DNA from: Pseudobdellovibrionaceae bacterium | Lineage (GTDB): Bacteria; Bdellovibrionota; Bdellovibrionia; Bdellovibrionales; UBA1609 | Direction: 5' to 3' | Assembly: GCA_030591685.1 (NCBI GenBank) | Contig: JAUVAX010000001.1 | Span: 143,140-163,139 of the forward strand | Length of the DNA stretch: 20,000 bases | Shown here: piece by piece, positions 3,001 through 12,000 of the stretch | Layout of the letters: each line of letters starts with the position of its first letter | Position numbering within the stretch: position 1 is the first letter of the stretch | Made by a program: the position numbers

Positions 3001-6000
3001 TAAAACCTTGGCCCCCATTGTTGTAGCCTCATTAACTTGCTCACTCATAACTTTACTAGCACTTGACTTAAATAAGGGCCCCATATTTGTAGTTTTACTC
3101 TTTGGGTCCCCTAATTTATAATCACTCATCAGTGTTTTAGCTTTTAAAACAAATTCATCAAAAACTTTTTCGTGAACATAAACCCTCTCCACCCCACAAC
3201 AAGACTGCCCTGAGTTAAACATGGCTCCATCAACTATAGACTCCACAGCGTCATCCACATCAGCATCATTATTGACAAATACACCGTCTTTACCCCCGAG
3301 CTCTAGGCCTGGGGTTATTAAACTCTCCGCACAGTGACGTAAAATTTGTTTGCCACCATTAACAGAGCCCGTAAACACGACATGGTTGACGCTTCCGGAT
3401 TCTATCACCTGCCCCGTAGTGGCGTGATCTAGTATCACATTTTTAACTAATACATCAAAGGCTCTCTCAAAATGCAAACCCACCTCAGGGGTCTGACCAG
3501 AGTGCTTTAACAGCACGGTGTTGCCCGATAACAGTGCTGGCACTATTGAGTTGACCGCAACAAGTAACGGATAGTTCCAAGCTGCAATCGTAAACACAAC
3601 ACCAAAGGGCTCGTGTGCGATGGCTCTGTAAAAATTAGGTTTTTGTGACACCTCTTTTGTTTTTAAAGTGCTTTCAGAAATACTACACATAAAGCGAGCC
3701 CTATCTAACATTCCATCAACTTCAAAAATGGCTTGATGCTGGGGACGACCCATTTGTAAGCTAATATCACTGGCGATTGTTTGCTTGTTCACTTCAAAGT
3801 AAGTTAAACACTTCAATACATGCGCCACACGCTGCTCACAGGTCTTCATGGACCAGCTCACTTGCTGAATCTTTAATTGTTTCACGGTACTCAGTGCTTG
3901 CTCAGTATTAGAGTACTCATATACTCTATCAACGCAGCCCTCAAAGGGGTTTATAACTTTTAATGTTTTCATGGCTTTGGACTCCGTCATCTATACTTTC
4001 AACTGTACTTTACTAAAAACTGCTCTATTATTTCGCCTGAACAACTTAAATACTCTTTTTGAGCTAATACTTTTTGAGCATATTGTTTAGAAGGCTCTAC
4101 AAATTTTATATGCATAGGGTTTACTTGCTTATAAAACTGCTCTTTAACCCCCTCTGGGGTACGACCTCGTTCGCGAGTGTCCCTTTCAAGACGCCTTTTA
4201 AACCTAAGGCCTTCATCACATTGTATAAAAATAGAATCATCAAAAGAGTCTCTTGTATACTCTTGAGATAATAACAAAATCCCATCCACTAAAATAATTT
4301 TTTTGGGCTTAAAAAGGCAGTTATCAAAGCCCCTCGTATGAGTTTTAAAATCATAACTAGGCATCTGTATGGGCTCCCCGCTTTTTAATAACTCTAAGTG
4401 TTCACAGAGCAATTTAAAATCTATGGCCGAAGGGTGATCAAAATTAACTCGGCCCCCGTCTTTGTCAAACGATGCACTTTGGTCATGGTAGTAGTTATCT
4501 TGTAATAAAATAGAGCACTCGCTCTCACCAAAAGCGGAGCATAAACTATTTGCAAAGGTTGTTTTACCCGAACAACTCCCCCCTACTATGGCAATAATAT
4601 TTACATTCAAACAAATAACCCCTTATTATTTTGTACTATAAAGTCGGTCGCCTGCGTCACCGATGCCTGGCACTAAGTAACCCTCATCATTAATTTCATT
4701 TTCAACCTCAAGGGTGTAAACCATTATATCTGGATGATATTTTAGTAATTTTTTTAACCCTAACTGTCCGGCAATTAAACATAAAATAGATATTTGACCC
4801 ACCTCATATTGCTTTAATCGATCGACACAAGCAATGACCGTGTCGGCGGTGGCAATTAGTGGGTCTACTAATAATATTTTTTTACCTTTGCAGTCATCTG
4901 GTAATTTAAAATAATACTCCACTGTATTTTTAATAAATTTATCTCTGTAAATACCAATATGACCACTTTTAGCAAAAGGTAGGCTTGATAATACCCCCTC
5001 TAACATTCCGTTACCGGCTCTCATTACTGAAACCACAATAGGAGCTTCAGTGACTTTTTGTACTTTTGCCTCACAAATAGGAGTGTTAACTGTGTGCGTA
5101 CTTGTAGACAGCTCCCTTGTCGCCTCAAACGCTAAGTATCGACTCATTTCATTAACGAGAATTCTGAACTCTGAGGACGAGGTCGTTTCATCTCTAAGTC
5201 GACCGAGTTGATGCTTTAATACAGGGTGGTCGAGCACGCTCACTTGTTTCATATATACATCCTTAAAATACGGTTCCATCACTTTTAATTTTAATCGGAG
5301 GTTCGCCACTGGCCCTAAGGGACTTTGCCACTTTACGTCCAGCACGCCAAGTGCCCCCTTCAAGTATTTTCACTAAAGGGAAGTTCTCTTCGGTGAGTGA
5401 AAGTTTATTTCTAATAATAGTACTAATTTGTTTTAGCAATTGTACCGTCAAGGCCCGCCACTCAATAACAAGGTCACTGCCTGGTGCGTGCAGAACCTCT
5501 AACTGTAATTTATCTTTTACCTCAATAACCTGTTGATCAACAAACAACCCACCATTGCGGTACTCAGCAAGCCCCGTTAATGCGTCTAAATGAGAGACCA
5601 CAAAGTTAGCCTCTTCTAAAGGCTCAATGAGTGAGTACGTGAGCCACTGTGAGAGTTTATGAAAAACAACATAGGACTCTTCTTTTGAGCCCAGTTGGGA
5701 GTGAGACCAGACATCCCCTAAATTAACATTATTATACTGAGTACGGCCGGGCCAAATTTCACCTAAAGCCTTAAGAACTGTGCTTAATAATTCGTTAGCT
5801 CTTATTGTTGTACCAAATTTATTTTGAAGGTAAACCACTAAGTCCCCTAAACGAGCCGACGGGAAGTAAGTATTATTGCTCTCTATCACTTGGCCGAGAG
5901 TTTGTAATAAACGAGCTCGCCCTTCTAGTCCCACGAGGGGGTTATCTTTTGTCACTTGAAAGTGCTTTATTAAGTCTTGTTCTGTAATTGTTTTTAATCT

Positions 6001-9000: not shown

Positions 9001-12000
9001 CCTGTGTCCGCTCTTTTAATGGCGTTTTACCCCACAAGGCCTGCGCTGATTTGGCGCTCTTTACGGCGTTGTTAATGTCTTCAAGCGTTGACTCATGGCT
9101 TACGCCAATGACTTTACCAAAATAGGGAGACTCAATGGTAAACTCAAGCCCCTTTGGCTTTACCCATGAACCGGCAATGAAATTATCAATTTTATGTGGT
9201 TGATCTGGCAGCTCTGTTAATGTCAATTCTCTAGTCCTCACTTAAGGTATTTACTAATACTAAATTTCAAAACTAACTTGTAAAACTGTCAAGAGTACAG
9301 TTGAATTGCTACACCGCTCATCAGCAGACAGCTGAATAAATCACTCGCATTTTTCCTTTTAGCAACCTCAAGGACCAACAACTTATTTAAAACACATAAT
9401 TAGCTAGTTTTTTAAGCACGGATCTGTCTCAATATAAGTCAGCTCACAAAAAAAATAGCATAATTAAGTTAGGGTTCGACACTTAAACTCATGGGCCTAG
9501 GGCTTGTTATACCACACTAAGGTCGCTTGGGCTTTCGTTTAAAGCTCACAGTCGTTCCCTGCTAATAAGGGCCCTTACTTAACAACTGCAAGAAAGATCA
9601 TCAAAAAACATTAAACCCAGTCGCTTATTTTAAATAATTTATTATAAATAATTGCCCTCACTCTGCTGATTGTAGAAACTTAACTAAATAACCCCTCTAA
9701 GGTACCGATAAAGAACTACAGCGAATTCTATGGAGAATAAGATGAACACCATTTTGCTACCTCAAGATAACCATAAAGATTTTGAGCATGTAAAAAATGC
9801 CATTGAAAGGCAAAATATAATCACCACCTCTGGTGATGAAAAGGATACGTTTTCAAAAGCGGATCATCAAAAATACGATGCCATTTCTATCTTTTTTGAT
9901 GACGAGGTGAAGAAGGTCTTTAAGTTGGTAGATACCATTCGAAAGAGTCGCTTCAATTACACAACCCCCATTCTTTTATTTACAGATAATTTTGATGAAG
10001 CGGCTCAGGTTTTCACCGCTATTAAAAACTTTCATCTCATTGACTGTGATGGAAGCGCTGAACATCTGATTCAGAAAATAAACACGGCTCTTAAAGGCCC
10101 TCATTCCGAAAGAAAAAAAATAAGTCTCGACGCTTCTATAATAAATATTTTTGCAAAAGCCACGATAAACACTTTGGATGTCATGGGAAACCTTAGAAAC
10201 ATAGAACATCAAAAACCTTTTTTATATGAAGGTGACCTCCCCTTTGGGATAGATGTTTCAGGGTTTGCCGCTATAAATTCGGATCACTTTAAAGGATTTT
10301 TATCCTTAAACCTGCCCGAGCAAACCTTACTCAAACTCGCAGAGACCATGTTGAATACAGAGTATGATGAAATCAATGATGAAATCAACGATATGGCCAG
10401 TGAACTTAACAATGTCATTTATGGACAGGCTAAAAAACAGTTTTCACAACTAGGGTTTAACTTACCCCGACTGATCCCCATTATTGTAAAGGGCGAAGAG
10501 ACCATTGTGAGGTCTCTATCTAGTGGACCCTCAATAGTTATACCCTTCACCTCAAGCGCTGGTCCGTTTTTAGTTTCGGTATCCTTAGGCCAACTAGAAA
10601 GGCCCCCTAAAGTAGGCTGATCTTATTTATAAGCTACACCAATCACCTGGCAACACAATTTGTTTTACACTTTTAGCCCGTACACCCAAAGAGTGCGTAC
10701 CTAATTTGAGCACAAATCTTTGATTTCTAACAGAGCCAGGGGTAACTAAGCGCACCTGTCCGTAGCCTTCATCATCTATTGGTATTGAGCCACTTCTTGG
10801 CCCTAATATCCATTTTATCGAACTCGTAGAAAGAGGGGACAACTCGTCGCGAGAAACTAACTCCACAGTCCCTGTACTATTACGGCACAAGAGACGAAAG
10901 TGAATCACTGTAAACCTCTTTCCGCGACATTTACTTGATAAATCTTGCCCAATTTTACACGTATCAAACCACCTGTTTTGAAATCCAAGCTCGTCAGCCT
11001 CTCGATTCATCCTTAGGGTGGTCTGAAGTTGATCTAAGTTAATGGAGGGGCGCTTGGGGGGCATTTTAACTTGGCCCCTGGACTCACCATAGTCACCTGA
11101 TTGAGGTTTTTTAGGGGCTTGCACGCAAGCTGTGACAGCGAACATAATAAATAAAATGTATATTGAATATCTCATTCTTCGATTGTAAACAGTCCCTCTC
11201 ACCCTTGGCAAAGAAAACTCTACTGTTGACCGCCCAACTGGACTGGTCTCTTTTTTTACTCATTACAGAGATAACTAAAGTCATTCATAAATTAACTATG
11301 ACTAAAAACTTAGGCTCAAACCAAAGTCAGTCTGACCAAAGTCAGGCCTGCCGGATTTAATTATTTTTACGTCATAATTTTCCGATAGGTATTCAATGAA
11401 ATCAGTATTATACACCTTTATATTTTTCAGTGTCTTGGCCACTTATACCGCCGTCGCTGAAAGCGTTGAAAGAAACGTCAAACAGGGAACAAACCTCATT
11501 GTACTTGATGGGTCCAAGGTTTGGGCTCGCTCTAAAAGGGACTTTCGAGAGTCCCCTGACAAAAACTCTATTTTGATTAATGACAACACTGAGTTAGAAA
11601 TTTATTATGAACGTAAGCTTAATAGTGGAGCCAAGCACCTATATGTTCGCATTTTATCTGGTCCGCATAAGGGGAAAATGCGTTGGGTTTACTTTCCAAA
11701 AGCTAATAAAAATTATCACCTTAAAATCAGTCAGCAATTAATACCAGAACAAGATGTAAAAAAGGCGGACACTCTCTCTGAGGCCACACATGTCACAGTG
11801 ACAAAGCCAACCTCTGACCCAAAAGCAGAGCTGCCCCTCATGAAAGCCACTCGTGAAAATGAATTTATAGGTAAAACGGCCTTCTCAGACTTTAACGTCA
11901 CAACAAACACTACAGCACTCCCAAAAGATACCACAGATGCTCAAGTTAATAATGCTCTTCAAAGAACAAGTAAACTCCTCTCCACAGGAGTAAAGGGCTC

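Follow-up and report, generated by a model that had tools for sequence, protein, structure and literature searches.

The URC route is one of the few known routes of pyrimidine degradation and is found in fungi and bacteria. Its closest described forms are the pathway of Lachancea kluyveri (URC1, URC4, URC6, URC3,5 and URC8), which leads to 3-hydroxypropionate, and the urg1-urg2-urg3 genes of S. pombe. In bacteria, RefSeq already names a cluster "GTP cyclohydrolase II - URC4/urg3 family protein - upp", an order carried by records of Gordonia, Azospirillum and Pseudoroseomonas and by cyanobacteria and alphaproteobacteria. The solved structures 7EJ3/7EEV are, we take it, those of UrcA of Rhodococcus wratislaviensis (Zhang et al., ACS Catal 2021). 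UrcA hydrolyses UTP and carries out two hydrolyses by itself, according to excerpts of a review. As for URC4, the initial annotation gave its reaction as unknown, but two published papers, in their excerpted text, already assign it the degradation of ribosylurea (as a putative ribosyl-urea-degrading enzyme). What has been published thus covers the pathway, the core cluster in bacteria and the function presumed for URC4; the locus described here is no new kind of system.

Operon layout and distribution

We analyzed a window of 20,000 nucleotides from a Pseudobdellovibrionaceae bacterium (contig JAUVAX010000001.1, forward-strand positions 143,140 to 163,139), in which five co-oriented open reading frames (ORFs) are tightly packed on the minus strand:

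7748..9226, minus strand: CoA-acylating (methyl)malonate-semialdehyde dehydrogenase, mmsA-like (ORF open to 9241)
6469..7734, minus strand: URC1/UrcA-type nucleoside-triphosphate (UTP) cyclohydrolase, GTP cyclohydrolase II homologue (PRK07198, PF12471)
5263..6468, minus strand: URC4/urg3 (DUF1688, PF07958), 401 aa; Qng1-like HhH-fold hydrolase, proposed (phospho)ribosyl-urea N-glycosidase
4626..5252, minus strand: upp, uracil phosphoribosyltransferase, URC6 counterpart (PRK00129, TIGR01091)
3999..4610, minus strand: udk, uridine kinase (PRK05480)

From the dehydrogenase to udk the intergenic gaps are 13, 0, 10 and 15 bases, the URC1 stop and the URC4 start abutting. The ORF list and family profiles bore out all five genes: PF07958 for URC4 (475.6 bits, E 1.6e-142), PRK00129 for upp (227.9 bits, cut-off 114; TIGR01091 also above cut-off) and PRK05480 for udk (214.8 bits, cut-off 180). 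The upp start is an ATG behind AAGGA, the ORF list carrying its frame on to 5363; for the dehydrogenase, the sequence makes a TTG at 9226 behind GAGG a likelier start than 9241. The locus is almost certainly a URC operon. The label "fungal-type" given to it initially was right about the URC identity but an understatement, since RefSeq already annotates the bacterial cluster with the same core order as here, although the RefSeq three-gene clusters, unlike this one, lack the leading dehydrogenase and udk.

The dehydrogenase scored 447.8 bits against TIGR01722 (cut-off 448.5; next family 272.5), and its best ten PDB matches were all methylmalonate-semialdehyde dehydrogenases (MMSDH; E 1e-90 to 1e-104). 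It is the only MMSDH of the genome, the remaining aldehyde dehydrogenases being less than 30% identical, and it may also serve valine or beta-alanine breakdown. URC1 scored 711 bits against PRK07198 (cut-off 403) and matched PF12471 (GTP_CH_N) at E 3e-81; it aligned with 7EJ3/7EEV at 556 bits over residues 10-420 (E 3.6e-166 to 7EJ3). It retains the zinc cysteines C250, C261 and C263, and its R334 aligns with Arg128 of E. coli RibA, the RibA arginine for pyrophosphate release. Y307 and E392 of 7EJ3, presumably catalytic, pair with Y305 and E390. The canonical RibA is encoded separately, on contig C93. With nearly whole-length homology, the three zinc cysteines and no notable difference at the protein level, URC1 is, by sequence, closely related to UrcA, the UTP cyclohydrolase of known structure, from which it differs in gene context. 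UTP rather than UMP would therefore be opened, which argues against the ring-opened UMP product assumed earlier.

Across Bdellovibrionota, URC4 was found in 109 of 301 genomes, a patchy distribution. URC1 was present in 110 genomes, including all 109 with URC4, and the lower-scoring MMSDH band that includes this dehydrogenase covered 90 genomes, 88 of them URC1 carriers; these counts come from one phylum whose genomes are kin and hence not independent. Loci were fetched from 60 of the 109 carriers. All five genes stood in order in 46 of the 58 loci with room on both sides; near URC4, URC1 and upp were present in all 58, udk in 54 and the dehydrogenase in 48. The claimed conservation in the phylum thus held for gene order but not for breadth of distribution. 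Among 80 named URC4 loci, 54 spanned at least 13 kb, 22 of which had the dehydrogenase and 16 had udk in place, close but not identical to the 18 and 14 of 47 first counted. Myxococcus, Corallococcus and Archangium have the order dehydrogenase-URC1-URC4-upp without udk and possess urease, whereas here udk is present and urease is absent. In one cyanobacterial URC4 locus, upp is followed by a more distant dehydrogenase.

Fold and predicted active site of URC4

No solved relative of URC4 was found by sequence, and its Pfam domain is still one of unknown function. The structural model of URC4 (pLDDT 96.0; 68 at the last residue) gave 11 Foldseek matches at E<=0.001, and the ten listed were all DUF2419/Qng1 proteins. 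The best match (E 1.5e-8), the target TM (0.72-0.75) and the next fold (E 0.06) reproduced the values first reported. In structural alignment (VIA), residues 7-401 of the model aligned with residues 5-323 of the 7UK3 chain over 312 residues (Z 27.2, rmsd 3.1), and seven Qng1 entries gave Z 26.7-27.2; hhalign of URC4 against Qng1 gave 97.5% (E 7e-12). These whole-length matches bear out the Qng1 fold. The claim that URC4 matches only Qng1/DUF2419 holds for the Foldseek matches listed but not for structural alignment, in which HhH DNA glycosylases (endonuclease III, AGOG, Ogg, MutY and MagIII) reached Z 8-10.1 through the two-lobed helical core (about 190-225 residues), against Z below 5 for unrelated folds. 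Pfam Q_salvage (PF10343) matched residues 264-362 at E 6.1e-5 as reported, but its 23.2 bits fell short of the gathering cut-off of 25, and the genome search likewise gave 0 of 1. Judged by its model, URC4 shares true structural homology with Qng1.

The correspondence of catalytic residues, initially drawn from spacing and motif, is now explicit in several alignments. HMMER alignment to StQng1 paired (Qng1 residue first) K199-K271, I203-W275, D207-S279, D231-E302, Y232-Y303, K233-R304 and E267-V334; a joint family alignment (via P0169 numbering) added W302-W374, Q306-R378 and Y323-F401. The hhalign result showed the correspondence as well. Structural alignment with untagged 7UK3 likewise ended with F401 on Y323, and with the human chain it was one residue off (model 400 on 341). 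In 149 URC4 relatives, K271 was conserved in 145, E302 in 144 (Asp in 3), Y303 in 147 and the terminal Phe in 145: near-invariance, not the full invariance noted in 40 homologues. The Qng1 phosphate pocket (K233, Y232 and Q306) pairs with R304, Y303 and R378, each conserved in at least 147 of 149.

URC4 thus shares with Qng1 the whole-length fold, the HhH lysine, the Tyr-Lys/Arg after the catalytic acid, the Trp and Gln/Arg of the last helix, and an aromatic chain end at the active site. On the other hand, it is only 14-18% identical to Qng1, is about 80 residues longer and has another gene context. The catalytic Asp231, which is Asp in 28 of 28 Qng1-like proteins of the joint alignment, is Glu in URC4. 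The proton relay D69-N72-D207 is not kept: D207 pairs with a serine (S279), and the loop matching the proposed acid N72 (A-G-A-G after D106) holds no conserved Asn in the 149 relatives. The queuine pocket (Y93, W94 and W299) is not preserved as a whole: Y93/W94 pair with S127/E128 in a less sure register, the N-terminal pairing (D69, Y93, W94) resting on motif and MAFFT and hhalign aligning this stretch differently; R80 of Qng1 was paired with no URC4 residue. Since the acid relay and part of the base pocket are not kept, URC4 is a sister family to Qng1 and not a Qng1, and the Qng1 catalytic layout once ascribed to it applies only to the sugar and phosphate side.

At the chain end, the hydroxyl of the Qng1 terminal Tyr is held by E267 and H316, as described in excerpts of PMC9881137. 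In URC4 that Tyr is Phe, position 334 is Ile/Val in 145 of 149 and position 394, paired by spacing, is Ile/Val/Leu in 144 of 149; at the sequence level this reads as a coherent co-change. The same excerpts state that C-terminally tagged Qng1 is inactive, a precedent by which assays of URC4 would need a free C-terminus, and that a Lys and an acidic residue are invariant between Qng1 and HhH DNA glycosylases; URC4, too, has a Lys and an acidic residue at these positions. Those glycosylases act in DNA repair, in contrast to the free-nucleotide metabolism here, and have Asp where URC4 has Glu; in the model, the long C-terminal tail of URC4 appears to fill the DNA cleft as in Qng1. Endonuclease III, of the same fold, frees urea from deoxyribosyl-urea in DNA.

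Proposed route and its alternatives

The best overall explanation (probability roughly 0.7) is that the operon serves URC-type pyrimidine catabolism and is geared to carbon and energy. As their families show, Upp converts uracil and Udk uridine to UMP, which housekeeping kinases would take to UTP. URC1, a zinc UTP cyclohydrolase like its solved relative, would hydrolyse the ring twice and free malonate semialdehyde; because the arginine with which RibA releases pyrophosphate is retained, the remaining nucleotide would probably be 5'-phosphoribosyl-urea. The three-carbon product, in contrast to the 3-hydroxypropionate route of L. kluyveri, would pass to the CoA-acylating dehydrogenase and yield acetyl-CoA, CO2 and NADH, as family and co-occurrence suggest. 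URC4 would hold ribose phosphate as Qng1 does: the 2'/3'-OH would be contacted by K271 and the F401 C-terminal carboxylate, the ring by Y303 and W374, and the phosphate by R304 and R378; E302 would act at C1' as nucleophile or oxocarbenium stabilizer. Hydrolysis would give ribose 5-phosphate and urea. Qng1 homology thus supplies a substrate pose and a predicted catalytic residue, E302. The fold and residue pairing strengthen the earlier proposal of an N-glycosidic hydrolase, and cleavage of the C1'-N bond is very probable on these models.

In this genome, which is 100% complete, no urease, urea carboxylase or allophanate hydrolase scored above cut-off, and what matched in part were AccC-type carboxylases and GatA; urease and allophanate hydrolase were each found in 0 of 301 phylum genomes in searches that detected the controls. 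The urea would therefore probably be excreted. Urease was present in 5/5 cyanobacterial and alphaproteobacterial and 3/3 myxobacterial URC4 carriers, and non-carriers within the phylum likewise lack it. An operon that includes udk, in a genome without urea-nitrogen recovery by known routes, sets this locus apart from yeast URC; the urea gap separates it from the yeast nitrogen pathway, not from URC chemistry. The absence of urease points to a purpose in carbon and energy rather than nitrogen, which we consider likely. The same chemistry might instead serve to clear an excess of uridine nucleotides derived from prey RNA, with acetyl-CoA and ribose phosphate as incidental gains: ATP is consumed in making UTP, and pyrophosphate is lost afterwards; a pyrimidine-nucleoside phosphorylase encoded in the genome would give ribose from uridine more cheaply, and de novo pyrimidine genes (a carbamoyltransferase domain and pyrF) are also present; and roughly two in three of the sampled phylum genomes do not carry the operon. 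Yet the first gene of the operon in 48 of 58 loci encodes a CoA-acylating dehydrogenase rather than a reductase, so that acetyl-CoA and NADH would be recovered, and udk lets the nucleoside enter with its ribose; disposal as the purpose is unlikely.

What URC4 acts on can also be read differently. That its substrate is the 5'-monophosphate is fairly probable, supported by the conserved phosphate pocket, by the Arg128 counterpart in URC1 and by an operon without a phosphatase gene. Action on free ribosyl-urea or the 5'-triphosphate, or transfer of the sugar to phosphate instead of water, is rather improbable on these grounds, even though excerpts of the yeast papers have ribosylurea without phosphate, Qng1 accepts the nucleoside as well, cleaving it 1.7 to 12 times more slowly (excerpts of PMC9881137), and the extra conserved basic residues R16, H63, R65, H68, R126 and H270 could hold more phosphates. 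If URC1 opened the ring only once, URC4 might hydrolyse an acyl-urea amide and free malonate semialdehyde or its acid, the Qng1 scaffold just holding ribose phosphate. Invariant polar residues (D106, S127, E128, H270, S279 and N305) remodel the pocket on the base side, and E302, as a Glu, may do another job; but the excerpted literature has UrcA performing two hydrolyses itself and places URC4 at the step from ribosylurea to urea, and the known-fold relatives at Z >=8 among those listed are Qng1 proteins and DNA glycosylases/lyases, which makes amide hydrolysis quite improbable. Salvage of queuosine or another intact modified nucleotide, URC4 riding with the uracil genes, is very improbable. 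The whole-length fold match is solely to Qng1, and three Qng1 residues of the pocket for the queuine side chain have counterparts in URC4 (P46-P61, W48-W66 and H53-H68); against this stand the sub-threshold Q_salvage score, the replacements at Y93/W94 and at I203 (W275), the strict co-occurrence of URC4 with URC1, the uracil induction of the fission-yeast orthologue urg3 (excerpts of PMC2174524) and the presence of a separate Qng1 in fission yeast.

Among the sources consulted, whose coverage of primary papers was limited, no published description was found of the fold link with a Glu-for-Asp active site or of a urease-free URC version. We propose, tentatively and at slightly less than even odds, that URC4 would be a second metabolic family with the HhH DNA-glycosylase fold, sister to Qng1, with Glu for an otherwise fixed Asp, cutting urea off a ring-less nucleotide as the completing step of URC chemistry, and that the Bdellovibrionota operon, with a dehydrogenase clade of its own, udk and no urease, would burn prey-RNA uridine to acetyl-CoA and ribose 5-phosphate with urea excreted, neither being known to have been described. 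If so, a DNA-repair fold would reach a second small-molecule pathway, and predatory bacteria would have a defined path by which prey RNA yields acetyl-CoA and ribose phosphate, with urea excretion as its prediction.

Genes beyond udk

The initial extent of the operon was right for the five genes but omitted co-oriented genes that follow udk at gaps of 8, -4 and 8 bases:

2590-3990, minus strand: aldehyde dehydrogenase
1217-2593, minus strand: glutamine-synthetase-like ligase
54-1208, minus strand: iron alcohol dehydrogenase

A class-I glutamine amidotransferase comes next, beyond the window start. No copy of the ligase or of the alcohol dehydrogenase turned up in the 60 + 80 URC4 loci. The trio recurred in 5/5 fetched stretches of relatives, 0/5 of which had URC genes; the module at 54..3990 is a separate one, appended outside the conserved URC operon.

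The five-gene operon and its distribution

The window spans C47:143140-163139, and its genome (2.66 Mb, with a completeness rating of 100%) carries the following genes:

3999-9226, minus strand: five-gene URC operon, with dehydrogenase, URC1, URC4, upp and udk
within it, minus strand: dehydrogenase, CoA-acylating (methyl)malonate-semialdehyde type (TIGR01722, 447.8 bits versus a cut-off of 448.5)
within it, minus strand: URC1 (PRK07198, PF12471)
within it, minus strand: URC4 (PF07958, DUF1688)

Spacing between the five genes is 13, 0, 10 and 15 bases. The promoter and terminator scan returned counts at chance level (20 versus 20.4 and 8 versus 8.2), so it is the gene spacing that argues for co-transcription.

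Of the 301 Bdellovibrionota genomes sampled, 109 had URC4 and 110 had URC1; no genome had URC4 without URC1. About 20 kb around URC4 was retrieved for 60 of the 109 carriers, spread over families, and 58 of these loci had room on both sides: all five genes stood in order at 46 of the 58, with URC1, upp, udk and the dehydrogenase in place at 58, 58, 54 and 48 loci respectively. MMSDH matches in the phylum fell into two score bands, the dehydrogenase of the window lying in the lower one; of the 90 genomes with a match in this lower band, 88 had URC1, including cases with the dehydrogenase outside the operon. The pattern says that the lower-band dehydrogenase travels with URC, the genomes counted being kin and the counts not independent.

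Separately, the best 80 of the 595 URC4 loci found were taken as named loci, 62 of them with room. All five genes were present at 20 of these 62 loci, from Bdellovibrio, Bacteriovorax, Halobacteriovorax and relatives plus a bin labelled Deltaproteobacteria and another labelled Sericytochromatia. In Archangium, Corallococcus and Myxococcus the set was four genes, without udk, and URC1-URC4-upp was the usual set in cyanobacteria and alphaproteobacteria; the RefSeq label in such bacterial clusters is "URC4/urg3 family protein". Relatives in genome contigs were recovered by an alignment-based scan, a single-protein scan having returned none.

In a quick, unrooted URC4 tree of the 80 named loci and the window, the URC4 of the window grouped in a 32-row set, of which 29 rows were Bdellovibrionota, with support 99. 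Four Myxococcaceae/Archangiaceae rows fell on the other side of this unrooted tree, a placement that does not imply independent origins. The kinship of its URC4 with Bdellovibrionota suggests that the host organism is a predator.

Two further features were seen among the named loci: i) the Sericytochromatia bin (L094) and the Deltaproteobacteria bin (L092) have a complete five-gene operon with URC4 inside the Bdellovibrionota set, a placement attributable to transfer, mislabelling or binning error; ii) at seven Microcoleus loci (L123, L125, L131, L135, L138, L147 and L160) the distance between URC1 and URC4 is ~1.2 kb larger than elsewhere, so the two genes are separated there by another gene or element.

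The fold and active site of URC4

The structure model of URC4, built with 150 aligned sequences, had a pLDDT of 96.0 and a pTM of 0.94. A Foldseek search with it returned 11 hits within the E<=0.001 limit, of which the ten listed were all DUF2419/Qng1 chains (best E 1.5e-8); the next fold came at E 0.06. VIA-align against 48,161 representatives placed human Qng1 (Z 27.1, 321 aligned residues) and Sphaerobacter Qng1 (StQng1; Z 26.8, 311 aligned residues) at the top with an rmsd of 3.0. HhH DNA glycosylases came next, between Z 10.1 and Z 5.5, a group that also took in a single HhH-like DNA-modifying enzyme from a phage, and unrelated folds scored below 5. Residues 7-401 of the model aligned to residues 5-323 of the untagged wild-type chain 7UK3, with F401 on the terminal Y323; with the human Qng1 chain the structural alignment ended one residue off. 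At the sequence level Qng1 was reached by profile only: hhalign of the URC4 alignment against 28 Qng1-like proteins gave 97.5% (E 7e-12, 302 columns) and the PDB entry that the URC4 profile matched best was StQng1 (E 0.03, residue by residue), while a single-sequence phmmer search of the PDB returned nothing useful and an ESM Atlas search with URC4 returned DUF1688 clusters only.

In Qng1, according to the paper on this enzyme (PMC9881137), the role of nucleophile or stabiliser belongs to D231. The hydroxyls of the ribose are bound by K199 together with the C-terminal carboxylate, and the sugar is also touched by Y232 and W302. Phosphate binding involves R80, K233, Y232 and Q306, the base receives its proton through D69, N72 and D207, and E267 and H316 hold the hydroxyl of the terminal Tyr. 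The profile alignment to StQng1 paired (Qng1 residue first) K199-K271, D231-E302, Y232-Y303, K233-R304, I203-W275, D207-S279 and E267-V334. When 30 of the 150 URC4 rows were aligned together with the 28 Qng1-like rows in MAFFT, the pairs W302-W374, Q306-R378 and Y323-F401 were added, along with three less certain ones: D69-D106, Y93-S127 and W94-E128. Over the best 149 of the 2,360 URC4 relatives found, K271 was kept in 145, E302 in 144, Y303 in 147, R304 in 148, W374 in 145, R378 in 148 and the terminal Phe in 145. This C-terminal Phe is accompanied by aliphatic residues at both the E267 and H316 places.

Because these sugar and phosphate pairs are retained, while a conserved Asn after D106 is absent from URC4 (149 relatives), the D207 position has Ser and the Y93/W94 aromatic pair has given way to small polar residues, the sugar-phosphate half of the site appears kept and the base half rebuilt. 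The rebuilt base half puts URC4 outside Qng1 on a membership test, yet URC4 is predicted to work like Qng1. Such a base half fits a small polar leaving group, e.g. urea. Endonuclease III, which has the same HhH fold, removes urea residues from DNA and provides a chemical precedent.

The URC pathway, its bacterial and fungal conservation and its orthology with S. pombe urg1/urg3 are already published, as excerpts of PMC3869809 and PMC2174524 state. The initial annotation had URC4 probably cleaving an N-glycosidic bond; this agrees with the standing assumption and is not a new idea, because text from PMC7530994 says that URC4 degrades ribosylurea to urea and text from PMC8709784 calls it a putative ribosyl-urea-degrading enzyme. 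No link of URC4/DUF1688 to Qng1 or the HhH fold appeared among the papers listed by the literature searches, and the main text of the Qng1 paper has no mention of DUF1688, URC or urg3. The finding is real and well supported, as a variant of a known pathway; its lasting value lies in the structural assignment of URC4 with a concrete candidate catalytic residue and an assay design, and in the urease-free five-gene form in Bdellovibrionota.

Two divergent protein sets were also noted. Among DUF1688 proteins, P0096, P0107 and P0116 (also P0119 and P0146) have Asp or Asn at E302, or Arg, Thr or Gln at K271, and in some of them the last residue differs too; they may form a subgroup with a different chemistry or be decayed copies. 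A Qng1-like subgroup (P0151-P0168; loci L171:1207-2304 and L172:1240-2337), over the cut-off in 2 of the 301 phylum genomes, keeps K199, N72, D231 and the terminal Tyr but differs at D207 (Met), at D69 (mostly Asn) and at Y93-W94 (S-G); several members have a hydrophobic N-terminal extension. Queuine may not be the base that this subgroup acts on.

Substrate, nitrogen and purpose of the route

URC1 matched PDB 7EJ3/7EEV, which we take to be UrcA, with 556 bits over residues 10-420, and its three zinc cysteines are kept. UrcA carries out a two-step UTP hydrolysis in uracil breakdown, according to a review passage citing the "UTP cyclohydrolase" paper (PMC9499338). Because of this close match, the ring opening by URC1 is predicted to act on UTP, not UMP, which speaks against ring-opened UMP as the product, as the initial annotation had it. 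R334 of URC1 aligns with Arg128 of E. coli RibA, tied to pyrophosphate release in part of a review (PMC10366380), and since this counterpart is kept the nucleotide left by URC1 is probably a 5'-monophosphate. A canonical RibA is encoded separately in the same genome.

Neither urease (controls matched 4/14) nor allophanate hydrolase (controls matched 1/14) exceeded the cut-off in any of the 301 phylum genomes; partial urea carboxylase/allophanate hydrolase matches in this genome were rejected as AccC-type carboxylases and GatA. Among ten hand-picked genomes, urease was present in 5/5 cyanobacterial/alphaproteobacterial and 3/3 myxobacterial carriers and absent from Bdellovibrio bacteriovorus Bd16 and Fluviispira; B. 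bacteriovorus does carry all five URC genes. Because both enzymes are absent here and urease is present in other carriers, the nitrogen probably leaves the cell as urea, and what the route yields would be carbon and energy, as acetyl-CoA, NADH and ribose 5-phosphate. A simple energy purpose is weakened by the ATP cost of the route, by a pyrimidine-nucleoside phosphorylase encoded in the same genome and by the lack of the operon in two thirds of the phylum sample; a serious competing reading is that the route removes excess uridine nucleotides.

The domain of this phosphorylase also led us to reject the URC route as the sole way of this genome to free ribose from uridine; Udp was not among its two PF01048 matches and PpnP was not found. 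At C63:75213-76303 of this genome (G000), pyrimidine-nucleoside and purine-nucleoside phosphorylase genes adjoin, forming a second nucleoside-use cluster. A search for literature on Bdellovibrio nucleotide use found nothing relevant.

The module behind udk and other neighbours

The genes on the udk side of the operon are:

54-3990, minus strand: aldehyde dehydrogenase, glutamine-synthetase-like ligase and iron alcohol dehydrogenase, directly after udk with the strand unbroken
L186:14466-15197 (C47:142465-143196, on the contig of the window), minus strand: class-I glutamine amidotransferase, just beyond the window, continuing the module

Membership of the trio in the URC operon was rejected: the ligase and alcohol dehydrogenase were not found at any of the 140 URC4 loci, and in five relatives the trio recurs without URC genes. 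Of 61 related genomes, 11 had a match to the ligase at E<=1e-70. The trio is a separate module that in this genome has come to sit behind the URC genes. Its second-best PDB match is 5DM3, presumably the Chromohalobacter enzyme. The module resembles the ethanolamine glutamylation route of Streptomyces and Chromohalobacter described in passages of PMC6529630, and appears to be a pathway that glutamylates ethanolamine or a similar amine, for which prey membrane lipid is a possible source.

In the flanking region, the proteins at window 9730-10620 (plus strand) and L186:9118-9987 (minus strand) look similar and have a CheX-like C-terminal part, assigned by Pfam for the former and by eye for the latter. 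The 550-aa protein at window 11396-13048 (plus strand) has an N-terminus resembling a signal sequence and matches the SLT transglycosylase domain weakly (E 5e-6); it could be an enzyme secreted to cut cell walls.
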